A stretch of DNA of 64,000 nt from a candidate division WWE3 bacterium (GCA_943354835.1 CALRDH010000002.1:106270-170269); one strand, 5' to 3'; positions 31,866-50,002 are shown, counted from the stretch's first letter. Notes: generated by a model from the letters alone, not told the origin. A program made the numbers and translations.

Positions 31866-32150
31866 TTATACGGTTCCACCAACAAATTGCTTAATAATTC
31901 CAGCCAATGTTGCGGCACCAAATACAAGTAAACCACCGATTAGAATATTGATGATCCAACCTCTAAGTGTTGATTTACGCTCAGTATCATCTCCGCTCAT
32001 AACTAAAAAGATACCAAGTGTAGCAATGGCGATAGCCATAACAGGAAGAGAATACCATTGAAGAGTCTTGACTATACCCCATAGAAGACTGTCAAGGTTT
32101 GTGAACTGAATGGGTTGAGCTGCGTCATACCCCGGTATTCCGTTTGCCAT
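31866..32150 (-). CDS. VirB2/TrbC-like pilin subunit
   Basis: 94 aa with two hydrophobic helices in hairpin arrangement; first gene of the operon. Confidence 0.5.
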   Translation of the reverse strand: MANGIPGYDAAQPIQFTNLDSLLWGIVKTLQWYSLPVMAIAIATLGIFLVMSGDDTERKSTLRGWIINILIGGLLVFGAATLAGIIKQFVGGTV

Positions 32151-32366
32151 AATAGTTTATTTTTCTTTGGGGGCAGAACTTATAACAACACTATGAGATT
32201 AACAAGCGTAGTATAATTCTACATATAGTAAATGTCAACAATAAATGTTGATTTAATAACCTAATTCAAAATTCCGAAGGCAATATTGTGTTTAATCGTG
32301 ATTTATTGACTATAATAAGTTCAAGACACTGAGTAGAGTAAAAAGGTTATAATTACAAATAACGTT

Positions 32367-35042
32367 ATGAAATTTAAATTTGAATCTAATCTAAAATTTC
32401 AACTAGATGCTATATCATCTGTGACTGATTTATTTGTAGGTGCTCCATTTATCAAACCAGAGGAAGCTATCTTTTCTGAAGTCGCTAGTAATGTTTTAAG
32501 AATATCTCCAGAGGAAATATTTGCCAATCGTGACAAAGTTATAAAAAATAATGGTATTACGAACTCCTGTAAGGAAGATGTCTTAGATTTTTGTGTTGAG
32601 ATGGAAACAGGTACAGGGAAAACCTATGTATATCTAAGAACTATCCTCGAGCTTCACCAAAAGTATGGTCTTTCCAAATTTATTATCGTTGTGCCAAGCG
32701 TTGCGGTTAAAGAGGGAGTAATGAAAACCCTACAGATCACCAAAGATCACTTTGAGGAACTTTATAACTCTATCCCCTATAGTTACTTTGAGTATGACAG
32801 CAAGAAAATAAATAAAGTAAGAAGCTTTGTTTACTCTAATCACCTGCAAATCATGATAATGAATGTTCAAGCATTTAACGCTGATGACAGAATTATTAAT
32901 CAAGAAAGAGATTCAAATAATGGTGAAAAACTAATTGATTTAATAGAGAAAATCAGCCCTGTTTTGATACTAGATGAACCTCAAGTTGGCATGGATACAT
33001 CCAACACAAAAGATAGAAGAAGAAAACTTAACCCACTTTTTACCCTTCGTTATAGCGCTACTCATAAAGTAGTAAAGAATCTGATTCATAGGCTTAGTCC
33101 TTATGAAGCCTACAATCAAGGTTTGGTCAAAAAAATTGAAGTTTTTTCAATTCATGAGAGCAATACCCAAAGCAATGTTTATGTTGAATTTGAAGGTATT
33201 AAGTTGACCAGTGATAAGCCACAGGCAAAACTCAAGATTAGTTATAGGCTTGCTAGTGGGGATTTTAAGATAAAGTCTGGATATTTTAAAGATGGTGATG
33301 ATCTAGAAGAAAAAACTAAAAACCCTGTATATAAAGGGTGGGTTATCGAAAGAATACTCAAAGATCCTCTAAATGGTACGAGCACGATTAAATTTAGTAA
33401 TGGCATAAACTTAACACAGGGCGAATCGCACGGTATAGATAAAGAAAGTATCTTTAGAGAACAGATTCGCTGGACAATCAAAAAGCACTTCGATAAAAAG
33501 GATAAGTATAAAGATAAGAAAATTAAGGTTTTATCACTCTTTTTTATAGATAGAGTAGCTAATTATATAGAAGACAATTCATTAATAAGGGTCTTATTTG
33601 AGAAAGTTTACACTGAGGAGTATAAAAATAGATATAAAATTCTACCAGACAATATATCCAAGGTTCATGATGGGTATTTTGCAAAGACTTCACAAGGAGA
33701 CTATACCGATAGTGAACTATCAATGAGTAAAAACAGTGAAGCTTACCAAAAGATTCTAAAAGATAAAGAAAGACTACTTTCTTTTGAAGAACCGCTTGAA
33801 TTTATTTTCTCTCACTCAGCCTTGGGTGTTGGTTGGGACAACCCCAATGTTTTTAATATCTGTACTCTGAATGAAACTGAGAGTTTAATCAAAAAACGAC
33901 AGGAAATAGGGAGAGGCTTACGTTTAAGTGTTACTCAAGATGGTGTTCGATACAGAGACTCGCTAGATGTTGAAGAAGGCAAGGAAATCAACCTGCTAAC
34001 GGTAGTAGCAAACCAAAGCTATTATGCCTTTACTCAGTCTTATCAAGAAGAATTGATAGCAGAATATGGCTTTGGTGAAAAAAAACCAGATATTAGAAAT
34101 GCTAGACATGAACCAAAGCAAATTAGACTTAATAAAAATGCTATTACAAGCAATGATTTTCAAAACCTTTGGAAAAAAATATCTCAAAAAACCAGATGTA
34201 AGGTTTTCTTTAGGGAAGATTCAATTATTGAGAAATGTATTGAAAGTTTAAACACAATTGTTGTCCCAGAAGTTGTCATATCAATTAACTTAAATAGAAT
34301 TACGGGAATTTTAGAACAAGAAGAAGACATGATTCAAAGCAAGAATGTGGGCCAAACAGAAGCAGAAACCAAAGCCAAGTTTGCTCCTATGAATCTCTTT
34401 GAAGAAATTGCAAAAAATACAGCCTTGAGTGTAGCTACTGCTACTAAGATTTTAGAAGGCGTTCATAACAAGCAAATGATCATAAGAAACCCAGTCGTTT
34501 ATCTTACAGAAGCGATTAAACGTATTAAAAGAGTTTTAAATGATGAAATGGTTAGATTAGTTAGATATGAAGCTTTAAATGAGAGTTACTCACTTAAAGA
34601 ATTTGAAGATGTAGTTACAACTTATCAGCAAAGTAACATCATCGAAGTTAATAAGAGCATTTATGATCATGTGATTTGTGACAGCGATATTGAGAGAAAC
34701 TTTGCCTTAGATATAGATGAAGAAAACAAAGTTAGAATGTTTGTAAAACTACCACATTGGTATACTGTACCAACTCCTATTGGAAATTATAACCCAGACT
34801 TTGCTTTGGTACTAGAAAAAAAGAATTTAGATGATGGGGGTAAGTCCAATTTTTACTTTGTAATTGAAACCAAAGGATCAAGAGAATGGGAATCCTTAAA
34901 GGAAGATGAGAAAATGAAGATAGACTGTGCTATCAAGCATTTTGAAGCTATTGGCTTAAAGGAGTATTTAGCTCCAATCGAGAGTATGAGTACTTTTAAG
35001 TCAAAGGCAAATGAAGTTACTGGCGAAAATGTGTTTAGTTAA
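32367..35042 (+). CDS. res: Type III restriction enzyme Res subunit (SF2 helicase-nuclease)
   Basis: Helicase motif I METGTGKTYV, motif II LILDEPQ; N-terminus characteristic of Type III Res. Confidence 0.85.
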   Translation: MKFKFESNLKFQLDAISSVTDLFVGAPFIKPEEAIFSEVASNVLRISPEEIFANRDKVIKNNGITNSCKEDVLDFCVEMETGTGKTYVYLRTILELHQKYGLSKFIIVVPSVAVKEGVMKTLQITKDHFEELYNSIPYSYFEYDSKKINKVRSFVYSNHLQIMIMNVQAFNADDRIINQERDSNNGEKLIDLIEKISPVLILDEPQVGMDTSNTKDRRRKLNPLFTLRYSATHKVVKNLIHRLSPYEAYNQGLVKKIEVFSIHESNTQSNVYVEFEGIKLTSDKPQAKLKISYRLASGDFKIKSGYFKDGDDLEEKTKNPVYKGWVIERILKDPLNGTSTIKFSNGINLTQGESHGIDKESIFREQIRWTIKKHFDKKDKYKDKKIKVLSLFFIDRVANYIEDNSLIRVLFEKVYTEEYKNRYKILPDNISKVHDGYFAKTSQGDYTDSELSMSKNSEAYQKILKDKERLLSFEEPLEFIFSHSALGVGWDNPNVFNICTLNETESLIKKRQEIGRGLRLSVTQDGVRYRDSLDVEEGKEINLLTVVANQSYYAFTQSYQEELIAEYGFGEKKPDIRNARHEPKQIRLNKNAITSNDFQNLWKKISQKTRCKVFFREDSIIEKCIESLNTIVVPEVVISINLNRITGILEQEEDMIQSKNVGQTEAETKAKFAPMNLFEEIAKNTALSVATATKILEGVHNKQMIIRNPVVYLTEAIKRIKRVLNDEMVRLVRYEALNESYSLKEFEDVVTTYQQSNIIEVNKSIYDHVICDSDIERNFALDIDEENKVRMFVKLPHWYTVPTPIGNYNPDFALVLEKKNLDDGGKSNFYFVIETKGSREWESLKEDEKMKIDCAIKHFEAIGLKEYLAPIESMSTFKSKANEVTGENVFS

Positions 35043-35081
35043 ATTTTTTTTGAGAGTATTATAAAAAGAACAGTTAAGAAT

Positions 35082-37034
35082 ATGAAAAATATTACAACAA
35101 ATATTACAAATAAGATTGACAAACAGTCACCTGATCTTCGTCAAGAAATGTTGGATAAGTTAAAAAAGCTATACCCCCCTCTTTTTGATAACGAAGGCAT
35201 GTTAAATCAAGATGAGCTAGAGCAATTAGTAAGTGACTTTTCTACTCCCCAAACAGAGAAATATGAGTTTAACTGGGCTGGTAAACAGCAATCCAAGAAA
35301 AAAGCCTTTACTGCAAGTAAAGCAACTCTTAGAAGCGATGAAAAACGCAGTGTGGATTTTAATAATACAGATAATCTTATTATTGAAGGTGATAACTTAG
35401 AAGTCCTCAAGCTTTTACAAAAATCCTACTTTGGCAAGATTAAATGCATATACATTGACCCCCCCTACAATACCGGAAACGACTTTATTTACCCTGATGA
35501 CTATAGCGAAGACAAACAAGCTTATTGGGAAAAATCAGGAGTTAAGCAAGACGGAGTTAAATTAGATACTAATACTGATTCAAGTGGTCGTTATCATAGC
35601 AAGTGGCTCTCAATGATGTATCCAAGACTTCTTTTGGCTCGCAATTTGCTCAAAGAAGACGGAGCAATATTTGTAAGTATTGACGATAATGAAGCTCACA
35701 ATCTTAGAAAACTGATGGATGAGGTGTTTGGGGAAGAAAATTTTATCACTCAAGTGGTGGTGCAAACTAACCCAAGAGGAAGGTCTTTGGATAGACATTT
35801 TGCTAAGACCTTAGAGTATGTAATAGTGTATGGCAAAAATGCGGATACAAACACTTCAATTTTTGAAATTCAAAAGGGAGAAAAGGCTTTAGCCCAATAT
35901 AATAAAGGTGATAGTCAAGGACAGTATAGATTGCTTGAGCTAAGAAATAGAAACCCTGTTTTTACAAGAAAGAATAGACCTAATTTGTTTTACCCTATCT
36001 TTATCAATAAAGATACTGGCGAAGTTTCCTTGGAAAAAGACGAAGTATTTTCGACTGAAGCACTACCTCTTAATTCTAAAATGGAGGAGGGTTGTTGGAC
36101 TTGGGGTAAGAAAAAGTTTGAGAAAAATAAAAAAGACTTGATTGGGAACCTTGCCTCAACTGGTGTTTGGAGAATATTTCGAAAAGACTATATCCCTAGT
36201 GATGGTGCAACAACAAAAGAGAAAACATTGTGGATTGATTCATCCCTTAATCACGAAAACGGCAAAGAGGAAATGGCCGACTTATTCAATACAAGTGGTA
36301 GTAGTATACCTTTTGACTTTCCTAAATCCGTTGAATATTTAAAAAAAATAATAAATGTATCAACACAGTGGGGTGTGAACGATGTTTGTTTAGACTTTTT
36401 TGCTGGCTCAGGTACTACGGCTCATGCAGTGATGGATTTGAATAAAGAAGATGGAGGTAATAGGAAATTTATCTTGATTCAAATTCCAGAATCTACCGAT
36501 GAAAAGAGTGAAGCCTACAAAGCCGGATACAAAACCATTTCTGAAATTTGTATTGAGCGAGTTAAGCGCGCAAGTAAAAAAATTATAGATGGGGGAAATA
36601 AGATTGATGCTGGATTCAAAGTATTTAAGCTTGCTTCTAGCCATTTTCCAGAAAATACTTTTGCCCCTAATCCAGAAAAAAATGATGAAGAAAATAAAAA
36701 AGCCTTAGTGGCATATATTAGTAAGGCTATTTCTCAAAAGGGTTTGTTTAAAGATGGAGTTGTTGATTTAATTTATGAGATTGCTCTGAAAGATGGATTT
36801 GAGCTAACGCTCAAGATGTATAAGGTAAAGGAATTTGATGAAAATGTGGTTTATAAAGTCACAGACAGTCATAAAGAAGCCCTTATTTGCGTGGATGATA
36901 GTTTGGAAGATGCCACTATCAAACAACTTGAACGCCACAAAGACCAAAGATTTATTTGTTTACATACAAGCCTAAACACTACAAAAAAGTGGAATTTACA
37001 AAATATTCTTGGAAGTAATTTATGGTTGGTGTAA
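35082..37034 (+). CDS. mod: Type III N6-adenine DNA methyltransferase Mod subunit (beta class)
   Basis: Motif IV DPPY before motif I FFAGSGTTAHAV. Confidence 0.9.
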   Translation: MKNITTNITNKIDKQSPDLRQEMLDKLKKLYPPLFDNEGMLNQDELEQLVSDFSTPQTEKYEFNWAGKQQSKKKAFTASKATLRSDEKRSVDFNNTDNLIIEGDNLEVLKLLQKSYFGKIKCIYIDPPYNTGNDFIYPDDYSEDKQAYWEKSGVKQDGVKLDTNTDSSGRYHSKWLSMMYPRLLLARNLLKEDGAIFVSIDDNEAHNLRKLMDEVFGEENFITQVVVQTNPRGRSLDRHFAKTLEYVIVYGKNADTNTSIFEIQKGEKALAQYNKGDSQGQYRLLELRNRNPVFTRKNRPNLFYPIFINKDTGEVSLEKDEVFSTEALPLNSKMEEGCWTWGKKKFEKNKKDLIGNLASTGVWRIFRKDYIPSDGATTKEKTLWIDSSLNHENGKEEMADLFNTSGSSIPFDFPKSVEYLKKIINVSTQWGVNDVCLDFFAGSGTTAHAVMDLNKEDGGNRKFILIQIPESTDEKSEAYKAGYKTISEICIERVKRASKKIIDGGNKIDAGFKVFKLASSHFPENTFAPNPEKNDEENKKALVAYISKAISQKGLFKDGVVDLIYEIALKDGFELTLKMYKVKEFDENVVYKVTDSHKEALICVDDSLEDATIKQLERHKDQRFICLHTSLNTTKKWNLQNILGSNLWLV

Positions 37035-37060
37035 ATAAATAATGCATATATCTAAGCTGT

Positions 37061-39076
37061 ATGGATAAACTCTTACATGAAAATATAGAAATCGGCGGCG
37101 AAGGAGTTAAATCAATCCTAGCTAAATTTAAACCAGAAGAGGCGATAGCTGAGTTTATCTGGAATGGTTTTGATGCAAATGCAACTGAGGTCAATCTCGA
37201 CTATGATGTTTCTAGGGAATTGGGTGAGGTAGAGTTTATAAAGATATCAGATAATGGAACTGGAATTCCTCAAAATAAATTAAATAACAAATTCAAACCG
37301 TTTTTTGAATCAGAAAAAGCCAAAAATGGAAAAGATAAATCTCACCACTCTCTTACTCACGGAAAAAATGGAATTGGGCGCCTGACATTTTTTACCTTCG
37401 CAAACAAAGCTTGCTGGACAACAAGATACGAAGAAGAAACGCAGATAATTAAAGAATATGATATTGAGATTCAATCAAGGGATATAGAAAACTATACAGG
37501 AAGCAATACAGATCTTAGAGGTACGAATGAGAAGACAGGAACAGTTGTTGAGTTTACAGGCATAAATAAGTTAAACAAATATGACTTTGAAGGAAAAGTG
37601 TTAGAGCATCTACGCCAAGAGTTTGGTTGGTTTTTAGAAATATTTTCAAAATTAGGCTATTCACTTAATATTAATGGTAATAAACTTGACTATTCTAAAA
37701 TTATTGGAGATAGGGACTCAATAACTTTAAAGTATGCTGCTAATGACACGCAGTTTAATCTAGGTTATATTCGCTGGAATACGCACCTGAAAAATGAATA
37801 CTCAAGATTTTACCTTTTAAACAGCAAAGGGAAAGAGATTTGGAAGGACACTACCAAACTTAACAATAAAGGAGACTCTTTTTACCACAGCATTTTTGTT
37901 AAGAGCGATTATTTTGATAATTTCACTTACGATGAACAACAGTCAAATGGAGAAATAACACTTTTTGGTCACTCCAAAGAAGATGAAGAATATAAATATA
38001 TTGAAGAAGAAATAACAAATTATTTAAGAAAAAAAAGAAAACCTTTTTTAAAAGAGTTTGCAGAACAGTTAGTTAATACATATGAAAATGAAGGTATCAT
38101 GCCCACTTTTCAATCAGAATGGGATAAACCTAGGAGGGAAGAATTAAGAAATGTCATAAAGAATCTCTATGAGGTCGAGCCAAAAATATTCAGTCAATCA
38201 AGTATTGAACAAAAAAAGACATTTGTTAGACTACTAAATACTTTGTTAGATACTGAAGATAGAGAACGTATTTTACAGATTATTAAGGAGGTAGTAGATC
38301 TTGACGAACAAGAGCAAACTGATTTATTAGATCTACTTAAAGCTACAAAACTAGATAGAATAATCTCTACAATTAAATTTATTCAAAATAGATATAAAAC
38401 AATTGATGAGCTGAAAGCGATTGTTTTTGATAAAGAATTAAAAGGAAATGAACGAGACCATATTCAGAAATCAATAGACTTTAATTATTGGATATTTGGG
38501 GAGCAATACCATTTACTATCTACAACTGAGGCAAAGTTTGATACAGCATTAAGACAATACACTTCATATTTAACTGAGTCGCAAGACATAATTCCTATTA
38601 CACATATAGATAAAAATAAAGAAATGGATATATTTATGTGTAGACAAATGAAAGGAATCAATAAAATTGAAAATATTGTAGTGGAACTAAAAAGCCCTAG
38701 TGTGAATTTGGGTGAAAAGGAAGTGAGTCAAGTGAAGAAGTATATGAGTGTGATTTTAAGCACTGATCAATTCAATAGTGACAATACGTACTGGGAATTT
38801 ATCTTAGTTGGCAACAGATTTGATTCTTCTGGATATATTGAAGGGGAGCTTGAAAATAGTAAAGGGCATGGTGAACGAAATAATGGACTAATTTTTAAGA
38901 ACGATAAATATAGAATTTATGTAAAAAAATGGAGTGAGATTTTTGAAGAATTTGAAATAAGGCATAAGTTTATTGAAGAAAAGTTAGAAATCGCACGAGA
39001 TAGTATTGCATCAAATTATTCTTCCGCAGATGAAATTATTCAAATACAACAAGATAGATCTCAAAAAGTTATTTAA
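37061..39076 (+). CDS. GHKL (MORC/MutL-like Bergerat-fold) ATPase fused to C-terminal PD-(D/E)xK nuclease-like domain
   Basis: Bergerat motif I EFIWNGFDANATE (ExxxNxxDA), motif II ISDNGTGIP, G-box HGKNGIGRL; C-terminal MDIF...IVVELKSP candidate D...ExK; 26 bp downstream of mod on the same strand. Confidence 0.55.
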   Translation: MDKLLHENIEIGGEGVKSILAKFKPEEAIAEFIWNGFDANATEVNLDYDVSRELGEVEFIKISDNGTGIPQNKLNNKFKPFFESEKAKNGKDKSHHSLTHGKNGIGRLTFFTFANKACWTTRYEEETQIIKEYDIEIQSRDIENYTGSNTDLRGTNEKTGTVVEFTGINKLNKYDFEGKVLEHLRQEFGWFLEIFSKLGYSLNINGNKLDYSKIIGDRDSITLKYAANDTQFNLGYIRWNTHLKNEYSRFYLLNSKGKEIWKDTTKLNNKGDSFYHSIFVKSDYFDNFTYDEQQSNGEITLFGHSKEDEEYKYIEEEITNYLRKKRKPFLKEFAEQLVNTYENEGIMPTFQSEWDKPRREELRNVIKNLYEVEPKIFSQSSIEQKKTFVRLLNTLLDTEDRERILQIIKEVVDLDEQEQTDLLDLLKATKLDRIISTIKFIQNRYKTIDELKAIVFDKELKGNERDHIQKSIDFNYWIFGEQYHLLSTTEAKFDTALRQYTSYLTESQDIIPITHIDKNKEMDIFMCRQMKGINKIENIVVELKSPSVNLGEKEVSQVKKYMSVILSTDQFNSDNTYWEFILVGNRFDSSGYIEGELENSKGHGERNNGLIFKNDKYRIYVKKWSEIFEEFEIRHKFIEEKLEIARDSIASNYSSADEIIQIQQDRSQKVI

Positions 39077-40577
39077 TTAAATATTTCAAAATAGTGTATA
39101 TCTTCAACATCGCCATTGTGTCCATTTCACAGTACCTGAGTAGGTTTTCTTTAATTGTTTCTTTTTTTGAAGTTTCTGCATTTTCATATACCATTTCAAA
39201 CCAGCTCGTCATGGCTGTTGCGCCTTCTCCAATTTCGAGTTCATTGTATGAAAAATCAGGAGCAAAAAGTGGAAGCACATTTTTTATTGAGTAACTCCCT
39301 TTTAGTTTTGGATCTGCGTACCATTGTTTTTGAAATATATCCATGAGGTCATAGATCCGCTCATTCATATTTAGGCAAAAATCTGCAAACTGAGGGTGAA
39401 TTTCTGCCATGCGTTTATTTTGTGTTCCTTCAAATGATTTATTCCAAACGATAAGCGAGCCTTCTTTTCCAATGTGTTTTTGCAGTTCTGTCAAAAAGTT
39501 TGGGATAGGATCAATTTGAGACGTTTCTATAAATTCAAAATGTTCTAGCTCTCGGCCTTGTTGTTGTATGTGCAGTGACCACTGAAAAGGCATCTGATCA
39601 AATGGTTTGTAACCATCATACATAGGAATAGCCGGGTTATATGATTCATAATCGATAAAATAAAGTGGGTAGATTACTCCACTTAAATCTTTTTGAATCT
39701 TGTTTGAATCGATCTCAACCTTATTGTTTTGAGCAACATCTACTTGAAAGCGTTGTATTTTTGAAAGTGAAAAGTCTTTTGGTACATCAAAAACACTTTC
39801 AATACCTTGATCAATAAGATCTCGCATCTTGGCAACATTCGCCGATAATCGATTAATATCGTAGATAGAATAATCTGGAAGATCTGGGTGACAGATATCG
39901 AGACAAGGACACTCTTTTGGTTTAATGCATTTATCAGCAGATTGTAGATTGTTTTTTTGGGCTGTAGTAAAAGCTTCTTGTCGTAACTCTATAACTTCAT
40001 CGGTTAGTTTGCTAACTTCTTCTGTAATATCAGAGACAGTGAATAATTCAGATAGGCTTACATCTCCACTGCGTACATATTCTTTATTAAGATGTAGTAT
40101 GTTTAGCGTTCCTATGTCGTAAGACTCTCTAAATACGAGGTATTGAAAAGTGGCATCGAATTTGTGTGTCTTTTTAACATCATTGGTACTTTTGATTTCA
40201 TAAATATCCCACTTATTTGTTTTGACGTTTTTAATGAGAACATCTGTTCTTGCCTGAAAGTTGCCGTGTATGTGTGTTGGCTGTAAAAATACATTATCAG
40301 GGTCAATCTTGTAACTTGGGATGAGGATGTTCTGAATGTATTTTTCAGCTTGCTCTTCTACCTCATACCCTTGATCGAATAGGTGTTGAATAAAAACATT
40401 TATTTCTTTTTCAGAAAGCTTATTGTTTTTCAGTGCCCAGAGATGCCGTGGAGCATCGAGGAAAGCTATAAAGTCGGTTTTTGTGATCATCATGTATCTT
40501 CCGATTATACTGGAAAATGAAATTATATCTCTCATTATTGGGTGGTTTTCCCTTTTCTTCCTATCATGCTTCTTCAT
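39069..40577 (-). CDS. DUF2779-like dual nuclease: RecB/Cas4-like PD-(D/E)xK with 4-Cys cluster plus C-terminal DEDDy 3'-5' exonuclease-like domain
   Basis: N-terminal D(VLI)...YEIK...QYLVF (D, ExK, QxxxY) and CIKPKECPCLDIC cluster; C-terminal Exo I DYE, Exo III YCEMD; 8-nt convergent overlap with 37061..39076. Confidence 0.55.
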   Translation of the reverse strand: MKKHDRKKRENHPIMRDIISFSSIIGRYMMITKTDFIAFLDAPRHLWALKNNKLSEKEINVFIQHLFDQGYEVEEQAEKYIQNILIPSYKIDPDNVFLQPTHIHGNFQARTDVLIKNVKTNKWDIYEIKSTNDVKKTHKFDATFQYLVFRESYDIGTLNILHLNKEYVRSGDVSLSELFTVSDITEEVSKLTDEVIELRQEAFTTAQKNNLQSADKCIKPKECPCLDICHPDLPDYSIYDINRLSANVAKMRDLIDQGIESVFDVPKDFSLSKIQRFQVDVAQNNKVEIDSNKIQKDLSGVIYPLYFIDYESYNPAIPMYDGYKPFDQMPFQWSLHIQQQGRELEHFEFIETSQIDPIPNFLTELQKHIGKEGSLIVWNKSFEGTQNKRMAEIHPQFADFCLNMNERIYDLMDIFQKQWYADPKLKGSYSIKNVLPLFAPDFSYNELEIGEGATAMTSWFEMVYENAETSKKETIKENLLRYCEMDTMAMLKIYTILKYLIK

Positions 40578-40582
40578 TCTAT

Positions 40583-40702
40583 GGGGTTAAAATCATCTGT
40601 CAAAAGGTGGGTTTTTAGCTCGTTCCTCACTAAAAATCCTTTTTGACTTTGCTTTGCTCCGCAAAAACTTTTGACAGACCACTTTCGTTTGATTTTCACC
40701 CC
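40583..40702. repeat. Long imperfect inverted repeat in the DUF2779/RadC intergenic region
   Basis: Arm 40583..40610 GGGGTTAAAATCATCTGTCAAAAGGTGG; reverse complement of arm 40668..40702 shares GGGGT(T/G)AAAATCA and TCTGTCAAAAG blocks. Confidence 0.6.
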
Positions 40703-40782
40703 ATGCCCCTTTTTTTGCATGATAGGAATAAAAATCTTATCTGCAAGTTATTAATTTATTAAAGAAAGGGGGTGAGATCGAG

Positions 40783-41199
40783 ATGATTATCAAACTGCAA
40801 GATGCCAAAGTATCAGTAGCTAGTCCTAAGTGTGTATTTGAGCTGTTAAAAGCTTACTTTCTGACACTTGATGATTTTGATCAAGATAAAGAACACTTCT
40901 TTGTTTTTCATCTGGATATTAGAAACAAAATCAAAATTATGGATTTGGTTAGTGTTGGTACTCTAACACAGTCATTAGCGCATCCAAGAGAGGTATTTAC
41001 AAGAGTTATTCATAAGAGAACACCAGCGATAATACTTGCCCATAATCATCCATCAGGCGAAACAAGTCCGTCTTATGAGGACATAAGCATAACTAAACGC
41101 TTGTGTGAAGCTGGAAAGATACTCTCAACAGATGTAATAGATCACATCATTTTTACTGATAATGAGTTCTATAGCTTTAAAGAGCATGAGCTGATTTAG
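40783..41199 (+). CDS. RadC-like JAB/MPN domain protein
   Basis: JAMM motif HNHPSGETSPS; strong RBS AAGAAAGGGGGTGAG. Confidence 0.85.
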   Translation: MIIKLQDAKVSVASPKCVFELLKAYFLTLDDFDQDKEHFFVFHLDIRNKIKIMDLVSVGTLTQSLAHPREVFTRVIHKRTPAIILAHNHPSGETSPSYEDISITKRLCEAGKILSTDVIDHIIFTDNEFYSFKEHELI

Positions 41200-41233: not shown

Positions 41234-41560
41234 GTGAAAGTTATGAAATTATTAACAAAGGAATTGTTGATGAGGTTTGAGAAGGTTGGCAGACAAGAGG
41301 ATGATAAAGATCCGATTGTTATTGCAAAGTTCTTTAATCCAACAGGAGCAGGTACTTGGCTTGCAACTGAGTACGATCCTCATTCAAAAGAATTCTTTGG
41401 ATTTGTATCGATATTTGGTGATTACAACGACGAGTGGGGATACTTTTCTCTTGATGAGCTAGAAAGCTACATTGGTAGATTTGGCTTAGGCATTGAAAGA
41501 GATAGGTATTTTACCGAGAAACGAATGAGTGAGGTAATGCCAAGTGCAATACTAGAGTAA
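41234..41560 (+). CDS. Small conjugative-element-associated protein (DUF2958-like, hypothetical)
   Basis: 108 aa with RBS AAAGGAGGTG; such families commonly sit next to RadC in ICEs; assignment tentative. Confidence 0.35.
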   Translation: MKVMKLLTKELLMRFEKVGRQEDDKDPIVIAKFFNPTGAGTWLATEYDPHSKEFFGFVSIFGDYNDEWGYFSLDELESYIGRFGLGIERDRYFTEKRMSEVMPSAILE

Positions 41561-42672: not shown

Positions 42673-43437
42673 TTATTCGTCAATCTCCACCTCGCTCCAC
42701 ACATCCCCAGTTGCACCTAGTTGTTTAATTTGTTCTTTGGTTGTTGTTTGAAATGTTAGGTTTTCTATCTGCTCGTTTCTGCAAATTAGTTTTACTTTTT
42801 TAGTAACATATTCTTCAATTTCATTGTTTGGGCAGATAAATAATATTGTGGGTATCTGTTCTTGTTTGATCCAGTCTCCTTTTGTAAAGAAGGTTATATA
42901 TTGGTTTATTCGGTTAAGAATGAAAAAGCGGGGTTTTTCTGGAAATATCTCTGCTATTAAGTATGGTTTCGTCTTCCCCTTGCGGAAGACGAAGAAAGGA
43001 AAAATTTCTTTGATAATCCCGTCTAGTGAGTATTCTGATCTTGTGTAGAAGGTAAGTCCTTCTTTTGTGCCGTATTTCTTTAGTAGATTGATATAAATGT
43101 CTGCAATTAAAACACAGTTTTCAATAAATTTAGTGGATCTTGTATCTTCTTGATATAGCTTTGTAATGTATGCCTGTTCTGCGTAATCTTGAGTTTTGAT
43201 AAACTTCATTCCATTAGTTTTAAGATAGTAAACCGCCGGTTGGTTATTTATTTTTGAAGTTGTATCTAATTTTCGACCTGTATAGCCTTTATCCGTTAGA
43301 TCTTTTAGCCATGCGTTTATTCTGTTGTATGTTTTGTGGTTAAGTAATGTTTGTATCTGGATTCTATTGAGGAATCTGAATTTATAGAGTAAATATAGTA
43401 TAGTTTTTTGTGTATTTGTTATTGTAGGTAGTTTCAT
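42673..43437 (-). CDS. Replication-relaxation family protein (wHTH)
   Basis: N-terminal LTNTQKTILYLLYKFRFLNRIQIQTLL; directly downstream of the coupling protein. Confidence 0.5.
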   Translation of the reverse strand: MKLPTITNTQKTILYLLYKFRFLNRIQIQTLLNHKTYNRINAWLKDLTDKGYTGRKLDTTSKINNQPAVYYLKTNGMKFIKTQDYAEQAYITKLYQEDTRSTKFIENCVLIADIYINLLKKYGTKEGLTFYTRSEYSLDGIIKEIFPFFVFRKGKTKPYLIAEIFPEKPRFFILNRINQYITFFTKGDWIKQEQIPTILFICPNNEIEEYVTKKVKLICRNEQIENLTFQTTTKEQIKQLGATGDVWSEVEIDE

Positions 43438-43581
43438 TTTTTTATTTAATGATTCGTTCTTTTTGTAGTACGAATTTTTCTTTTCCTTATTCATAAGGAA
43501 TAAAGAGTACAAAAAATATTTTGTTTTTCCTTTTATATCAACTAATACTCAATTAATTTTGTGTTAGCTGATGACACAAGA

Positions 43582-46260
43582 TTATATTGATTTTCTTTTA
43601 GATTCACCCTGTTTACTGCTATCTTTTTTCTTGCTCTTAGACTTTTCGGCTTTTGTTGCAGGTTCAACTATTTTTAACTTTTCATCTAACTTTTTTAAAG
43701 TCTCTACATCTGCACCATATTTAGCTCTTGAATTTTCAATTACCAACTGCTCAATGTTTTCATCCTTGGGAGTTGTAAAGTCATAAGTACTACCAGTAAA
43801 TGCATCTTGTGGAATTACACCATTTATTTTTATGTAAAAGTTAAATGAAGGTAAGTTTGCTATTTGGTGTTCTTTAACCTGAGGAGCAAATAAAGGTAGA
43901 ATAAAATCCTCATCTGTTGGGTTGCTTGTTCTATAGGAAACAACGGTACCTACATTTGCAAGAATAACTTTTAACAAGTCTTGATCTTCTATTTGAGAGA
44001 TGGTTTGGTGTGCAAGTATTGTATCAAGCCTGTATTTGCGCGCTTCGGATAAGATTTGGGCAAAAGTCATAGTAGCAAAGTTTTGAAACTCATCTATGTA
44101 TAAAAAGAAATCTTCACGCTTATCTTGTGAAATATGGACTCGGTTTAAGGCGGCTAACTGCAACTTAAGAATAAGTAAGCTTCCTAAAAATGACGAAATA
44201 TCCTCACCTATTTTCCCTTTTGATAGATCACAAATAAGAATCTTTTTGTTGTTCATAATATCGTCAAAGTCAAGTTTGCTATTTTCTTGGGTCAAAATGT
44301 TTCTGGTTGTTTTAGTGGTAAAAAATCTACCAAGTTTATTGGTAATTGGTGAAATAAGCTCAGCTCTTTGGAAACTTCCAAAACCTTTAAACTCTTTCTC
44401 CCAGAATTCTTTAAGTAACGGATCTTCAAGTTTGGAAACAATGGTATCTCTCAAGTTTTTATCTACCAGCATTTTATATGCGGTAAGTAATGTGGGTTTT
44501 TCTGTTGAAAGAATGGCTAAAATAGTATTTCGCAGTACATGTTCCATTCGAGGGCGGGCAGTATTAGATGGGTAAAGCTTTAAAAACACAGAAATAAGGC
44601 TTGAAACGATAAGATCTTTTTCCCGTTCCTTTTCAACATCAGATAAACCTTGGGTCATTTGCAATACATTTAAACCAATAGGATGCTCAAGGTCATACGG
44701 ATTGAAGTAAATTACATCTTTGATTCTATCTTTTGGAATAACACCAATTAGCCTAGTTGCTAAATCTCCGTGTGGATCCATTACAGCTACACCTTTCCCG
44801 TTTTTTATATCTTGATAGATCATTTGTAGCAAAAGTGTGGTTTTGCCCATACCAGTTGCACCGATCAGGTACATGTGCCTTCGTCTTTCTTCTATCGTTA
44901 ATCCTATTGGGGTAATGCTTTCACCATGAATATTGTGCGCAAATACAATATCAAGATTTGAAGGATTTTTAAGACTAATTGGTGCTGGTAAATGTGACGA
45001 TTTTATTGATTGTAAGTCCTCGGTTTGAGTAGTTAGTGTAAATGGAAAGTGATAAATTGTTGAAAGTTCTGATACTGAAAAGATTGGATTAGAAGTAAAC
45101 GAGAACAATCGATACTTGAGACGTAAAAAGTTTAGCTTGGTAAAGAGTGAGTTAAAGTGTGCTGATTTAACCTTAAGAGACTGATAGCTAAGATTGGTAT
45201 ATGTTGCAAAGTTTCCTATAATCCCCTTTTTTCTAAGCTCAATATTATTTTTAGAAGTTCCAACAACTAAAAGTCGCATAGTTACCTCAAATAAATCTTG
45301 ATTAATTTTTGACTCTACAACTTCTTGTATCTGGCTTTGTTTTGGTGTTAGTTCAATTATTTGATCAGTTGTACTCTTTTCTTGTTCAAGCACGTATTTG
45401 CTTGGATATTTTGGCGATGCCATTGCAAAATCCATAATCCATTTAGTAAGGTCTTTTAGAAGAAGTACAAAAAGATCAAAAATAAAAAGTGGGATTACTT
45501 TTAGTGTATGTAATGTTTTTGCAAAAGAACTGTTTTGAATATATGAAACAATTTCTTTCCCTTCGTAAATACGTTTTTGTAGCTTAAATAAGTAATCTGC
45601 AATGTGCCCATGGTAGACAGGCGTTACAGGAGAAGTGACCAATTGCAAAGTAATTAACTCATCTGGCTCAAGTTTTGTCATCTGTCCGGTGATATATGCA
45701 ATCGGATCGTGCTCACCAAGTACATTTTGTTCTTTTAACGGAAGTACAAAGTGATTTTTAAGTTTGAATTCGGTAAACGAATATTTTTTGCTTTCTAAAT
45801 CTTCTAAAGACTTTGGCAAGTGGTCGGAAATTTGCTGAATTTCAATACCTGGAAGGTACGAAAGTAAGTTTTTACGAAGAATTGAAACATATTCTTTTGG
45901 TGTATAAATTATGTAGCGAATTCCATCACTTCTGCTAGAAGCTATTTCATAGCTGACACGTTTTTTGTTTCTGAGTAATCGGTCTAAAAGTGTTGGCTTT
46001 GTATCAAGCGAATGAAGAATAGTAAATAGCTGTTTGGTAGTAAATGCCGTTTGTAATGATATAGATGGAGGTTTTATCTCTAATAAAACATACGAGCCTT
46101 GAAGTGATTTTTTAAACTGTAGATATTTAAGAACACTAAGACCGATAAAAAAGAAAAAGGTGGCAAAAAAAACCACAGTAATCCATGAAATATTTGCTCC
46201 TATTAAAATTAGTTGGGCAAGTGTCGGTGGGATTACATCAGACCAGTTTATATTTTCCAT
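43582..46260 (-). CDS. Type IV coupling protein (VirD4/TraG/TraD-like T4CP)
   Basis: N-terminal TMs; Walker A LIGATGMGKTTL, Walker B FFLYIDEFQNF, AHQTISQ motif; lysine-rich C-terminal tail. Confidence 0.85.
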   Translation of the reverse strand: MENINWSDVIPPTLAQLILIGANISWITVVFFATFFFFIGLSVLKYLQFKKSLQGSYVLLEIKPPSISLQTAFTTKQLFTILHSLDTKPTLLDRLLRNKKRVSYEIASSRSDGIRYIIYTPKEYVSILRKNLLSYLPGIEIQQISDHLPKSLEDLESKKYSFTEFKLKNHFVLPLKEQNVLGEHDPIAYITGQMTKLEPDELITLQLVTSPVTPVYHGHIADYLFKLQKRIYEGKEIVSYIQNSSFAKTLHTLKVIPLFIFDLFVLLLKDLTKWIMDFAMASPKYPSKYVLEQEKSTTDQIIELTPKQSQIQEVVESKINQDLFEVTMRLLVVGTSKNNIELRKKGIIGNFATYTNLSYQSLKVKSAHFNSLFTKLNFLRLKYRLFSFTSNPIFSVSELSTIYHFPFTLTTQTEDLQSIKSSHLPAPISLKNPSNLDIVFAHNIHGESITPIGLTIEERRRHMYLIGATGMGKTTLLLQMIYQDIKNGKGVAVMDPHGDLATRLIGVIPKDRIKDVIYFNPYDLEHPIGLNVLQMTQGLSDVEKEREKDLIVSSLISVFLKLYPSNTARPRMEHVLRNTILAILSTEKPTLLTAYKMLVDKNLRDTIVSKLEDPLLKEFWEKEFKGFGSFQRAELISPITNKLGRFFTTKTTRNILTQENSKLDFDDIMNNKKILICDLSKGKIGEDISSFLGSLLILKLQLAALNRVHISQDKREDFFLYIDEFQNFATMTFAQILSEARKYRLDTILAHQTISQIEDQDLLKVILANVGTVVSYRTSNPTDEDFILPLFAPQVKEHQIANLPSFNFYIKINGVIPQDAFTGSTYDFTTPKDENIEQLVIENSRAKYGADVETLKKLDEKLKIVEPATKAEKSKSKKKDSSKQGESKRKSI

Positions 46261-46537
46261 ATAAATCAGGGCAATTTATGCTTGGAGTATATCAAAGCCT
46301 ATAGAGAAAGTGAAGGGAAATAAAAGAAAAGAGCGTCCTTTGGATAATAGAAATAAGTTGCAACGGTTGAAACCGTGCGTATGTAATTGCGTTGGCAATC
46401 ACACTTACTTATTTTATTTGTCCATTGGACGCTCTGGGTTGCACTTTCTTTTGCGAAATTCGAATAGACTGATAACAGAGTCACCTGTCGTTTTCACGCC
46501 CTTTGCAGGTTTAGTGTATTCAGTTTGTGATGTTTAA

Positions 46538-47636: not shown

Positions 47637-47897
47637 TTAAAACGGTAATACTTCTGACGATTTTACTTTTAGTGCTATACAAATATTTTCTATAACCGCA
47701 AATGTTGGGTTTTCTTCTCCACGTTCTATACCTGCATAATAAGTTACCGATATACCACTAGCTTTAGCTACTTCTTCTTGCGAAAGTTGCAAGCCCGAGC
47801 GTATTTCTCGTAGATTTTCGCCAAACTTTTGCTGGCTTTTTGGATTTACAGATGAATTCATAACCATAGTATATCTCAAATTTTTATAGTTCGTCAT
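47637..47897 (-). CDS. XRE-family helix-turn-helix transcriptional regulator
   Basis: HTH LSQEEVAKASGISVTYYAGIERGE. Confidence 0.8.
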   Translation of the reverse strand: MTNYKNLRYTMVMNSSVNPKSQQKFGENLREIRSGLQLSQEEVAKASGISVTYYAGIERGEENPTFAVIENICIALKVKSSEVLPF

Positions 47898-47937: not shown

Positions 47938-47979
47938 TGACACTACAACTATAGTTGTATAAACTATAACTATAGTTAC
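47938..47979. promoter_or_regulatory. Promoter with two 12-bp perfect palindromic operators
   Basis: TTGACA (47938..47943); CAACTATAGTTG (47947..47958); TATAAA (47959..47964); TAACTATAGTTA (47968..47979); lies between the divergent XRE gene and the recombinase operon. Confidence 0.7.
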
Positions 47980-47999
47980 AGTAATTTAGATACAAAACC

Positions 48000-48209
48000 A
48001 TGAGTAAAGAGTTACTAGAAAAATTTAAAAAGCTATATTACGAGAAGTTTGGTATTGCTCTTGGCAACGAAGAAGCAACAGCAATGGCAAATGATCTTGT
48101 TAACTTAATGAAAGTACTATTAGAACCAGATAAGTCGAAAAGTACAGAATTCAAGTTGGAAGAAAGGAGCGAATATGCGACTATCGAAACACAACAACAA
48201 TACATTTAA
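48000..48209 (+). CDS. Small hypothetical protein (possible excisionase/RDF-like accessory)
   Basis: 69-aa ORF immediately upstream of, and overlapping, the recombinase start. Confidence 0.3.
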   Translation: MSKELLEKFKKLYYEKFGIALGNEEATAMANDLVNLMKVLLEPDKSKSTEFKLEERSEYATIETQQQYI

Positions 48210-49902
48210 TCAACAAGACAAAATACCTGTAATTAACAGGTACTTAGTTTACTGTCGAAAAAGCAGTGAATCTGATGAGCGTCAAATTCAATCACTTCCC
48301 GATCAAATACACACATTAATGACTTATGTCTCTTCTCGTGGCTTAGAAACAATTGGAGAGCCATTGCAAGAGTCAAGATCGGCAAAGATTCCGGGTAGAC
48401 CCGTGTTTGATCAACTTGTTCAAAAAATAGAAGATGGCGAAGCAAACTGTATAGTTTTATTAAACCCTTCAAGGCTTTCACGAAATACTGTTGATACAGG
48501 GAGAATTATTTACCTTATGGACCAAGGTAAACTACAGGAAGTAGTTACTCCTTACCAGACCTTTATAAATAATCCTTACGACAAGTTTATGCTTAATTTG
48601 CTTTGTACACAGGCTAAACTCGAAAATGATAACAAAAGTGTAAATGTGCGAGAGTCGTTACAACTGAAAGCTGAACGAGGTGTATTCCCAGGAAAAGCAA
48701 GACCTGGATATAAAAACAACCACGAAAAACCGCAAGGTTTGCGAGATATTTCAGCAGATCCTGTAACTTTCCCTCTTATGCGAAAGCTGTTTGATTTGGC
48801 ACTTACAGGAAATTACAGTATAGAAAAACTGATAAAAGAAGCAGGAGAACTCGGTATAAGGAGTTCAAAAAGTGGTAAGCCCATTTGCAAAAGTTGGATG
48901 CACCGTTTGCTTCGAGACCCTTTTTATACAGGTAAATTTATGTATTGCGGAAAGCTGTATGAAGGCAACCACCCTGCAATGCTCAACGATGATGAATTTA
49001 ACCTACTTCAAGATATTGTTGAAGGTAGATCAAAAGGAAAATCCAAGAAACACGATTCTGCATTAAATGGACTAATCACATGTGGCGAGTGTGGATATCG
49101 CATTACTGTAGAAACTCACACCAAGCACTATAAAAATGGCAATTCACAGGTATTTGCATACTACAGATGTACCAAAAAGGGTACAGAGTGTAAGTGTAAT
49201 CAACCATATGTTTCCACCGATAAGCTTGAAAACGAATATGTTGAGGATCTTACAAAGTTCGAGCTTATACCAGAATTTGCTGATATAGCATTCCAAGCAT
49301 TAGAAGAAGTAAAAGAAAAAGATGACCATGTAAATAAAAATAGCCATGAGGCACAGCAGAAGGCATTAGAGAATATAAACAAGAGAATTAATAACCTTGT
49401 TTCGCTTAAAATATCTCCCGATAACTCAGACGGAAGTTTGCTTTCTGACGAAGAGTTTGGAGATAGAAAACGAAACTTGCTTATTGAGAAAGAACAGTTG
49501 ATGAAAAAATTATCTCAAACTGATCCTAAAAATACCGAGTGGGCTAATATTGCAAAAGAAAGTTTTAACTTTGGATTACTAGCTGCAAAACGATTTGAAA
49601 ATGGAACCTCAGAAGCCAAAAAAATTATCTTCAATACAATCGGCTCGTACCCAAAGCTAAAAGACAAAAAACTGCAGTACAAAGCCAAATACCTGTTTTT
49701 TAAGTATAAAGAAGGGGTAAAAGAGACAAATGAGAAAATGAGTCCGCTCGTACCTGCAAACGTAGTGTCAGACCAGTCTAATCTCGAAAATTATCTAAAA
49801 AATAGTTTATGGTGCCGAGGAGAGGACTTGAACCTCCAAACCCTTTCGGGCACAGCCACCTCAAGGCTGCGCGTCTGCCATTTCGCCACCTCGGCATGGT
49901 GA
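48175..49902 (+). CDS. Large serine recombinase (integrase)
   Basis: N-terminal resolvase catalytic domain YLVYCRKSSESDERQ (catalytic Ser); recombinase domain; zinc-ribbon CGECGYR...YYRCTKKGTEC; coiled-coil; last ~31 codons antisense to tRNA-Leu(GAG). Confidence 0.85.
   Translation: MRLSKHNNNTFNQQDKIPVINRYLVYCRKSSESDERQIQSLPDQIHTLMTYVSSRGLETIGEPLQESRSAKIPGRPVFDQLVQKIEDGEANCIVLLNPSRLSRNTVDTGRIIYLMDQGKLQEVVTPYQTFINNPYDKFMLNLLCTQAKLENDNKSVNVRESLQLKAERGVFPGKARPGYKNNHEKPQGLRDISADPVTFPLMRKLFDLALTGNYSIEKLIKEAGELGIRSSKSGKPICKSWMHRLLRDPFYTGKFMYCGKLYEGNHPAMLNDDEFNLLQDIVEGRSKGKSKKHDSALNGLITCGECGYRITVETHTKHYKNGNSQVFAYYRCTKKGTECKCNQPYVSTDKLENEYVEDLTKFELIPEFADIAFQALEEVKEKDDHVNKNSHEAQQKALENINKRINNLVSLKISPDNSDGSLLSDEEFGDRKRNLLIEKEQLMKKLSQTDPKNTEWANIAKESFNFGLLAAKRFENGTSEAKKIIFNTIGSYPKLKDKKLQYKAKYLFFKYKEGVKETNEKMSPLVPANVVSDQSNLENYLKNSLWCRGEDLNLQTLSGTATSRLRVCHFATSAW
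49810..49895 (-). tRNA. tRNA-Leu(GAG)
   Basis: Leu backbone with long variable arm; anticodon loop TTGAGGT; CCA encoded. Confidence 0.85.
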
Positions 49903-49925: not shown

Positions 49926-50002
49926 TGGTGGTTGAGACTGGGTTCGAACCAGTGACCTTTCGGATGTAAACCGAATGCTCTAACCAGCTGAGCTACTCAA
50001 CC
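49926..50002 (-). tRNA. tRNA-Val(TAC)
   Basis: 77 nt; acceptor GGTTGAG/CTCAACC; anticodon loop TTTACAT; CCA encoded. Confidence 0.8.

Follow-up and report, generated by a model that had tools for sequence, protein, structure and literature searches.

A DUF2779 protein with two predicted nuclease domains is encoded by a backbone gene at the border of a defence-cargo hotspot in an integrative element bearing a type IV secretion system

When a gene for a predicted nuclease runs head-on into a restriction-modification (R-M) operon and overlaps its last gene, does it belong to that operon, and what might its product do? This question is raised by a locus in a 64,000-nt stretch of DNA (GCA_943354835.1, CALRDH010000002.1:106270-170269; hereafter the window, in which all positions are counted). 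There, a minus-strand gene of the DUF2779 family meets the 3' end of a plus-strand gene for a GHKL ATPase, which follows Type III res and mod genes. A reading made from the sequence alone (hereafter the sequence-only reading) had described the product as a DUF2779-like dual nuclease, with a Cas4/RecB-like Fe-S nuclease in its N-terminal half and a DnaQ-like exonuclease in its C-terminal half. It had also suggested that transcription of the two convergent units should interfere or be coordinated, and that the protein processes DNA ends in defence or conjugation. In this study, we found that the protein is a new member of the known but uncharacterised DUF2779 family, and that it possesses two nuclease folds with conserved catalytic residues. 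Its gene is a conserved backbone gene, not cargo, of an integrative element that bears a type IV secretion system (T4SS). We consider it probable that the gene encodes a stand-alone two-nuclease enzyme of 473-474 amino acids (aa) whose general role is to process or clear DNA ends, in the service of both element and host. Our confidence in the biological role alone is lower than that in this reading as a whole.

The open reading frame (ORF) of 502 aa that had been proposed is present on the minus strand, and its translation was read. The match of this ORF to the Pfam family PF11074 (DUF2779) has a score of 143.2 bits against a gathering cut-off of 23.3 (E = 6e-42) and covers model positions 1-126 of 126 and residues 306-430 of the 502-aa ORF. 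The earlier wording, "DUF2779-like", can thus be strengthened to full membership. The family is large, with 6954 cluster representatives at E <= 1e-3 in a library of 1.8 billion proteins, and full-length homologues align over residues 1 to approximately 470. The nearest homologues are from metagenome-assembled genomes labelled Dojkabacteria, Saccharibacteria, and Patescibacteria. Assignment to the Mollicutes subfamily UU173 (NCBIfam NF045869) was rejected, as the protein scored 70.4 bits against a cut-off of 225 and matched the C-terminal part of that model only. Sequence searches of the PDB with the protein, both as a single sequence and as a profile, gave nothing meaningful. A model of the protein was obtained with AlphaFold2 from 32 homologues, with a pLDDT of 93 and a pTM of 0.85.

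The true start codon is almost certainly M30 or M29 of the long ORF (positions 40490 or 40493), and the first 28-29 codons are then non-coding. This correction is based on four observations. The database entries identical to the protein are 473 and 474 aa long; the N-termini of the homologues begin or align at "M(M)ITKTDF"; the -10 box of a minus-strand promoter overlaps the ATG with which the long ORF opens (40575-40577); and the stretch at 40540-40577, which would be translated as "MKKHDRKK...", is kept as non-coding DNA before different genes in three related loci (L001, L089, and L097). Individual residues are hereafter numbered in the 473-aa protein, and addition of 29 converts them to the 502-aa ORF.

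The PD-(D/E)xK core that had been described in the N-terminal half is in place, with D83, E98, K100, and Q116 as its catalytic set (the codons of the first three residues are at 40242-40244, 40197-40199, and 40191-40193, respectively). The Cas4 models of PADLOC match residues 29-231 weakly (E = 2e-4). A Foldseek search of the PDB with the AlphaFold2 model placed 4IC1 and 4R5Q, both of Cas4, among the matches of the N-terminal half (E = 1.7e-4 to 4e-4), together with MGME1. Conservation was scored on 43 representatives with 29-57% identity. D83 is conserved in 42 of them, E98 in 41, and K100 in 42, and the whole set including Q116 is present in at least 39. The QxxxY motif was misread, as the sequence at this site is Q116-Y-L-V-F120, and the fourth residue after the Gln is Phe, Leu, Cys, Ala, or Val in the family.

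The C-x5-C-x-C-x3-C cluster was found as described, comprising C188, C194, C196, and C200 with H201 directly after it (sequence DKCIKPKECPCLDICH). C188 and C194 are each conserved in 42 of the 43 sequences, C196 in 24, and C200 in 28. Many of the relatives lacking C196 and C200 have a Cys residue near position 13, which is Ala in the window protein (codon 40452-40454), or a CxC just before C194. The putative metal ligands appear to have been relocated within the family: the sub-lineage of the window protein is without the N-terminal Cys and has two added C-terminal Cys residues (C196 and C200), and more distant relatives have the reverse pattern or a CxC insert. An Fe-S or metal site in the N-terminal half is plausible. 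The Fe-S nuclease of the sequence-only reading is retained to that extent, but the arrangement of the Cys residues is not that of a canonical Cas4.

The resemblance to Cas4 raises the possibility that the protein trims prespacers in CRISPR adaptation. Although the similarity to Cas4 in sequence and fold is real, it is weak, and the Cys arrangement is non-canonical. Moreover, no CRISPR array was found in the 64-kb window, no cas genes were found among the annotated neighbours of DUF2779, and the 25 neighbour families that recur most often in the loci include no cas family. A role in CRISPR adaptation was rejected on these grounds and can be regarded as effectively refuted.

The exonuclease motifs claimed for the C-terminal half were also located. 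The DxE motif consists of D280 and E282 in "FIDYES", the YxxxD motif consists of Y453 and D457 in "YCEMD", and an ExoII-like motif is formed by N350-K-S-F-E354 in "WNKSFE", where an invariant Glu replaces the Asp. Six residues (D280, E282, E354, D381, Y453, and D457) are invariant in all 43 sequences. The Pfam RNase_H_2 model matches residues 343-497 of the 502-aa ORF slightly above its cut-off (23 bits versus 22, E = 9e-5), and a profile match aligns this half with the ExoII motif "VIVYNQSFE" of Pol I. The Foldseek matches of the C-terminal half were 3'hExo, the WRN exonuclease, and the DinG exonuclease; these are weaker than the Cas4 matches (E of 0.03 or more), and those of WRN and 3'hExo have a probability of 0.9 with E values of 0.05-0.2. 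Both nuclease folds were therefore detected, the N-terminal one by PADLOC and Foldseek and the C-terminal one by Pfam and Foldseek, and both catalytic sets are kept across homologues as distant as 29% identity. Neither of the two outcomes named beforehand as refuting the sequence-only reading, loss of the catalytic residues in homologues or a single nuclease fold, was observed. The protein has no helicase, ATPase, or AAA domain and is encoded by a solo gene with its own promoter.

The relationship of this gene to the R-M operon was investigated at the junction between them. The overlap with the GHKL gene is exactly 8 nt long, as claimed (39069-39076, TTATTTAA). The GHKL stop codon TAA is at 39074-39076, and the stop codon of DUF2779 is the complement of TTA at 39069-39071. 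However, the overlap is not conserved, and the cargo beyond the 3' end of DUF2779 differs in the relatives. Homology to the window ends at the 3' end of DUF2779 in the six relatives in which this junction was read. The closest case is L090, where the pilin gene is 94.5% and DUF2779 87% identical to the window at the nucleotide level (91% for the DUF2779 protein). The DNA alignment of L090 runs through AGATCTCAAAAAGTTATT and then breaks completely approximately 15 nt past the DUF2779 stop codon. The third cargo gene of L090 encodes an OLD/AAA_15 protein without similarity to the GHKL protein, and the convergent genes are separated by 105 nt. In the other relatives, the break lies inside the last ~10 codons, and the gaps between the convergent genes are 10-65 nt. 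In the window, the last GHKL codons ("..RSQKVI" and the stop) are read from the conserved 3' flank of DUF2779. Because L090 has exchanged the GHKL gene alone and the homology breaks at the 3' end of DUF2779, the 8-nt overlap is a by-product of cargo exchange and not a conserved design. The seeming coupling between DUF2779 and the R-M/GHKL operon arises as an artefact of this exchange, and the proposal that the overlap coordinates the two units was not borne out.

The cargo beyond the DUF2779 3' end is always convergent with DUF2779. It consists of Type III res-mod and GHKL in the window, Type III res-mod and OLD/AAA_15 in L090, Type III mod-res and OLD/AAA_15 in L001, Type I HsdRMS and a Gabija-like pair (AAA_15/OLD-TOPRIM and UvrD) in L089 and L097, a UvrD-like gene in L091, and HsdR with AAA_13 in L099. 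Since these convergent cargoes are unrelated, DUF2779 is not part of the res-mod-GHKL unit, and its 3' end forms the constant boundary of a defence-cargo hotspot. The hotspot extends over approximately 32150-39068, with the VirB2 pilin gene on one side and the 3' end of DUF2779 on the other. No terminator was found between the convergent genes; the sole terminator-like site (39663-39684, plus strand) is within chance expectation. Convergent read-through between GHKL and DUF2779 is possible because no terminator separates them. The GHKL protein has weak C-terminal matches to HSDR_N_2 (E = 7e-4) and to the Shedu SduA/DUF4263 nuclease (E = 3e-3), so that a GHKL ATPase and a PD-(D/E)xK nuclease may be joined in one chain and attached to the Type III R-M system.

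On its other side, DUF2779 belongs to a conserved gene order. A relaxase-like gene, DUF2958, RadC or a gene for a 125-aa protein, a hairpin, an optional gene, and DUF2779 follow one another in L001, L089, L097, and L100, and relatives with a protein identity of 71-91% share this order. The optional gene encodes an SDR protein in L089 and L097 and a 415-aa protein in L001. DUF2779 also adjoins the genes for a T4SS coupling protein (T4CP) and a relaxase-like protein in L006 and in the distant locus L038 (41% identity). DUF2779 thus belongs to the conserved backbone of an integrative element that bears a T4SS. The setting had been described earlier as an island directed against mobile genetic elements, next to RadC. 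It is this T4SS element with its defence cargo, and RadC does adjoin DUF2779. In another locus, L096, a RhuM fragment was observed just upstream of DUF2779.

To describe the wider neighbourhoods, 80 genome loci were retrieved through DUF2779, and their ORFs were called and clustered. The Patescibacteria-type copies are found repeatedly in mobile or defence settings, and the copies of Anaerolineae are in housekeeping synteny. Neighbours within two genes on either side were counted for approximately 50 Patescibacteria-type loci (144 proteins). These loci have no dominant family and no fixed partner in this range; the commonest families are the DNA methylases N6_N4 (7) and N6_Mtase (3), GmrSD (4), Pif1 (3), ResIII (3), and resolvase (3). 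Genes located 7-10 positions away, taken as controls, have mostly housekeeping functions (TsaD, ABC transporters, HAD, and NUDIX), and R-M and mobile-element genes are fewer among them. Rough Fisher tests of near against far genes gave p = 0.085 for methylases and p = 0.007 for pooled families, both calculated on family hits in which double counting is possible.

These neighbourhoods bear on a second explanation, in which DUF2779 is a general restriction or defence helper that degrades from both ends the linear fragments cut by R-M, OLD, Gabija, or GHKL systems, thereby taking in these small genomes the part that RecBCD plays in E. coli once DNA has been restricted. The gene converging on DUF2779 comes from an R-M or ATPase-nuclease cassette in every close relative. 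R-M methylases, GmrSD, ResIII, and Pif1 are the commonest close neighbours and become scarcer 7-10 genes away, and the plasmid-borne copies lie beside genes for Type I R-M, PD-(D/E)xK, PLD, and helicase proteins. However, the defence partners are mutually unrelated and have been exchanged independently of DUF2779, from which they are separated by a recombination break in convergent orientation; co-location in a hotspot is no proof of cooperation. The Anaerolineae copies have no defence neighbours, and PADLOC has no DUF2779 model and matches the protein only weakly through Cas4. We consider a dedicated helper of this kind to be rather unlikely.

The survey was extended to plasmids and phages. 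Of three plasmid contexts inspected, those of Arcobacter and Planktothrix look defence-like and that of Salinibacter does not. PHROGs contains no phage family matching DUF2779, and only four partial matches were found in a phage collection; the reading of DUF2779 as a phage gene was dropped on this basis. In 13 loci (L009, L010, L011, L032, L049, L052, L065, L071-L073, L076, L080, and L082), DUF2779 lies 0-3 genes from a module that consists of a ParB-N6/N4 methylase, a TerS-like helix-turn-helix protein, a large serine recombinase, and TerL (phrog_38, E = 4e-83), at times with a Type ISP R-M system and Pif1. In the module flanks examined, which were not annotated systematically, genes for phage structural proteins were not noticed. 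The TerS/TerL module may represent a satellite-like or packaging-competent island of Patescibacteria. L010 and L011 are two DUF2779 copies located 27 kb apart in a single Patescibacteria genome of 1.05 Mb (BOKM01000001.1). Their identities with the protein of the window are 59% and 56%, and each is found in its own island with the methylase, TerS, Type ISP R-M, and serine recombinase genes.

A third explanation is that DUF2779 encodes a housekeeping nuclease for repair, recombination, or nucleotide recycling, which hitch-hikes on mobile elements without an element-specific role. The minimal cell JCVI-syn3.0 carries the member MMSYN1_0389 as a quasi-essential gene, and the authors of the study describing it conclude that its role extends "beyond bacterial immunity" (PMC13621843). 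Among the M. bovis mutants that were selected in cell culture, one had a transposon in a DUF2779 gene (PMC7373297). The very large size of the family and the conserved, non-mobile synteny of the Anaerolineae/Brevefilum copies also fit such a nuclease. On the other hand, the Patescibacteria-type gene lies within elements that carry T4CP and relaxase-like genes (the window, L001, L006, L038, and L100), the module with TerS, TerL, and the serine recombinase is near DUF2779 in the 13 loci, and two copies occur within 27 kb of one genome. We consider a purely hitch-hiking housekeeping gene to be rather unlikely as well.

A general end-processing role is favoured because DUF2779 behaves as backbone and not as cargo. 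In the proposed mechanism, the gene would be transcribed from a conserved promoter embedded in the upstream hairpin. By analogy with its relatives, the N-terminal Cas4/RecB/MGME1-type domain may act on free single-stranded DNA (ssDNA) ends or flaps in the 5'->3' direction, and the C-terminal DEDDy domain of DnaQ/WRN type may be a 3'->5' exonuclease. The enzyme would then be a metal-dependent, helicase-less exonuclease of two polarities that needs free ends and trims or degrades linear DNA, such as the ends of the element DNA, restriction fragments, or competing incoming DNA. It could be a single-chain counterpart of the paired nucleases of AddAB and RecBCD, or of trimming by Cas4 together with DnaQ. 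Of the dual-nuclease, end-processing protein of the sequence-only reading, the two folds and the conservation of the catalytic sets are shown, and the end-processing role is suggested by the relatives.

Several points weigh against the general end-processing role in a mobile element. Anaerolineae, including Brevefilum, carry DUF2779 in stable housekeeping synteny, it is present on 31 of 72,556 plasmids (mostly of Arcobacter, Aliarcobacter, and Helicobacter), and it is essentially never found in sequenced phages; therefore, a mobile-element-specific role of DUF2779 cannot be general. As judged from rough counts, R-M genes are only modestly enriched in the vicinity of DUF2779. An Fe-S cluster is not assured, with the Cas4 features incomplete, the Tyr of QhxxY missing, and the Cys layout different. 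The substrate, the polarity, and the preference for DNA or RNA are extrapolated from distant relatives, and neither biochemical work on nor a solved structure of any DUF2779 protein was found in our literature and structure searches. Finally, the assignment of the host to the Patescibacteria comes only from the sources of the homologues.

The promoter of DUF2779 is of the sigma-70 type and matches the consensus at 11 of 12 positions. In related elements, the -35 box is invariant, and the -10 box is TAGAAT, TAAGAT, TAAAAT, or TATACT, always conforming to TAnnnT. It is carried by the nested hairpin between DUF2779 and RadC. As ssDNA, the region 40545-40745 folds with -37.9 kcal/mol (z = -9.0 versus shuffled sequences). 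The -35 box lies within a perfect 10-bp stem (CTGTCAAAAG/CTTTTGACAG), and the -10 box lies in an 11x12-nt internal loop. The hairpin is 93-99% identical in nucleotide sequence in L001, L089, L097, L098, L091, and L095, against 71-87% for the coding sequence of DUF2779; its conservation thus far exceeds that of the genes flanking it. No Rfam family matched the hairpin at threshold. The Enterococcus-1 RNA, with 20 bits against a cut-off of 71, was rejected, and a literature search on that motif found no papers. When viral contigs were scanned with the pattern of the stem, no further copy was found and the one match, in a coding region, was unrelated (L101).

The features of the hairpin resemble those used to nominate ssDNA promoters of the Frpo/ssi type (PMC11541004, PMC12672017). 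From its geometry, the duplex promoter should read into DUF2779; the minus-strand hairpin form would read into RadC and DUF2958, given that the promoter arm would there serve as the non-template strand. This bears on the possibility that DUF2779 is an establishment or anti-defence factor that the conjugative element produces early after entering a new host. Its position beside RadC and DUF2958, to which L006 adds a weak ArdC-N match, is typical of establishment regions, and it is directly adjacent to a conserved, promoter-bearing hairpin like the ssDNA promoters described in those papers. In the geometry above, however, DUF2779 would be served only by the double-stranded DNA promoter, and the terms searched in the leading-region paper turned up no nuclease of the DUF2779 kind. 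We regard an early establishment factor as quite improbable.

A broader proposal combines these elements. The hairpin would be a conformation-dependent promoter that serves DUF2779 as duplex and, in a Frpo-like manner, RadC and DUF2958 as a hairpin on incoming ssDNA; DUF2779 would be a dedicated backbone nuclease for linear DNA; and the Replic_Relax protein would be the "missing" relaxase of Patescibacteria T4SSs. This combination is speculative, and we would not expect all of it to hold. As an alternative to an ssDNA promoter, the hairpin is a candidate for the origin of transfer (oriT).

The features of the locus and of the remainder of the element are listed in Table 1.

Table 1. Features of the DUF2779 locus and of the surrounding element in the window
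Feature	Position	Strand	Remarks
RhuM-family protein	23017-24012	+	
Small PLD-like (PLDc_2) protein	24136-24606	+	
M23 peptidase	26422-27186	-	beside VirB4
Type III res	32367-35042	+	PADLOC REase_III
Variable defence cargo of this copy (res, mod, GHKL)	32367-39076	+	adjacent to the DUF2779 unit but functionally separate from it
Type III mod	35082-37034	+	PADLOC MTase_III
GHKL ATPase	37061-39076	+	HATPase_c_3, E = 6e-19
Backbone/cargo junction	39055-39076	.	8-nt overlap and ~14 nt of conserved DUF2779 3' flank
DUF2779 ORF, first-ATG form	39069-40577	-	502 aa, from ORF listing
DUF2779 gene, likeliest expressed form	39069-40490	-	473 aa and stop; alternative start 40493 gives 474 aa
DEDDy 3'-5' exonuclease (RNase H-like) domain	39072-39677	-	aa 272-473: D280, E282, N350/E354, D381, Y453, D457
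Cas4/RecB-type PD-(D/E)xK nuclease domain	39876-40490	-	aa 1 to ~205: D83, E98, K100, Q116
Cys cluster C188-x5-C194-x-C196-x3-C200	39891-39929	-	putative Fe-S/metal site
In-frame 5' extension of DUF2779 ORF	40491-40577	-	probably untranslated: 5' untranslated region and part of promoter/hairpin
Nested hairpin carrying the promoter	40553-40733	.	inverted repeats, ~190 nt, between DUF2779 and RadC
Sigma-70-type promoter into DUF2779	40576-40603	-	-35 TTGACA (40603-40598), 16-nt spacer, -10 TAGAAT (40581-40576)
RadC	40783-41199		
DUF2958	41234-41560		
Replic_Relax protein	42673-43512	-	PF13814, E = 8e-9
T4SS coupling protein (T4CP)	43582-46260	-	
Large serine recombinase	48175-49902	+	
tRNA-Leu(gag)	49810-49895	-	
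tRNA-Val	49926-50002	-	

The element also encodes the VirB2 pilin, VirB6, and VirB4. The gene for the Replic_Relax protein is directly downstream of that for T4CP, and this pairing is kept in L001, L038, and L100. According to a survey from 2025, most T4SS clusters of Patescibacteria have no recognisable relaxase (PMC12102498), and the Replic_Relax protein is a candidate for the relaxase reported missing from them. Upstream of the T4CP/relaxase-like operon, an intergenic inverted repeat (46330-46358 and 46407-46435) has 29-nt arms that are 79% complementary and a 48-nt spacer; it is a second oriT candidate. Overlapping palindromes of the ACTATAACTATAGT type at 47942-47982, just upstream of a Cro/CI-type helix-turn-helix gene (47637-47897, minus strand), are likely the operator of the regulator of the element. 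The 3' end of the serine recombinase ORF overlaps the tRNA-Leu gene, which suggests that the right end and the integration site of the element are located there. A search at the left end for an attL/attR repeat matching the tRNA-Leu end of the element found paralogous tRNA-Leu genes only. The window has a GC content of about 34% and 11 tRNA genes.

By itself, the DUF2779 gene adds little to what is known, as the family is large and the architecture has already been described twice in silico. Nevertheless, given the quasi-essential status of MMSYN1_0389, biochemical work would be of use on whichever member behaves well, and this copy may be suitable because it is compact, its model is of high confidence, and its four-Cys site is intact. 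The hotspot and the hairpin are of higher interest than the gene, with the hairpin being the most interesting by-product of the analysis. The former is a cleanly defined defence-cargo hotspot in the T4SS elements of a probable bacterium of the Candidate Phyla Radiation. The latter, together with the relaxase-like gene next to T4CP, bears on the published question of whether the T4SSs of Patescibacteria conjugate.

Compared with the nuclease domains of Cas4 (SSO0001, PDB 4IC1; Pcal_0546, PDB 4R5Q), MGME1, AddB, and RecB, the N-terminal half of the DUF2779 protein retains the fold, the metal-binding D...ExK core, the conserved Gln, and cysteines after the core. It differs from Cas4 in having Phe where QhxxY has Tyr. 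A canonical Cas4 binds its Fe-S cluster with one N-terminal and three C-terminal Cys residues, whereas all four are C-terminal to the core in the window protein, which is also fused to a second nuclease and is found without a CRISPR context. The C-terminal half shares with the DEDDy and DEDDh exonucleases (WRN, 3'hExo, the N-terminal domain of DinG, MrfB, and the proofreading domain of Pol I) the RNase H-like fold and the motifs ExoI DxE, ExoII N-x-x-F-(D/E), and ExoIII Y-x3-D. In contrast to them, it has Glu in ExoII, an additional invariant D381, and no AAA or helicase domains.

The hairpin can be likened to the Frpo/ssi ssDNA promoters by its features. Both are long intergenic hairpins with -35 and -10 boxes beside genes of an establishment region, whereas the -10 box here lies in an internal loop and not in the stem. 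The present hairpin has ~190 nt and a folding energy of -38 kcal/mol, in a genome of 33% GC.

The combination of a Cas4-like domain and a DEDDy domain is not new, having been described in silico in two studies (PMC3985635, NAR 2014; PMC13621843, mSphere 2026). A search of the defence literature for Cas4-like/DEDD fusions found nothing beyond the papers cited here. Majorek et al. (2014) assigned PF11074 to a clade of 3'-5' exonucleases and remarked that it occurs together with the Cas4-like domain DUF83 (PMC3985635). The PF13482 RNase_H_2/COG2251 proteins likewise have an RNase H-like fold joined to a Cas4-like domain (PMC3985635). The closest counterparts are the PF11074 members themselves (MMSYN1_0389 and Mbov_0804; family F.17 in the RNase H-like classification), which are biochemically uncharacterised and have the same two-domain architecture and the same D/E/K and D-E-(D/E)-Y-D residues. 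In the description of MMSYN1_0389, a Cas4-like and a DEDDy nuclease are fused, and both are predicted to be active (PMC13621843). Its DEDD domain starts at approximately residue 460, and the NCBIfam UU173 profile has 650 positions; the window protein is shorter, at 473 aa. MMSYN1_0389 has two Cys residues only, whereas the window protein keeps the four-Cys cluster, and MMSYN1_0389 is encoded by a core chromosomal gene, whereas the DUF2779 gene of the window is located on a mobile T4SS element.

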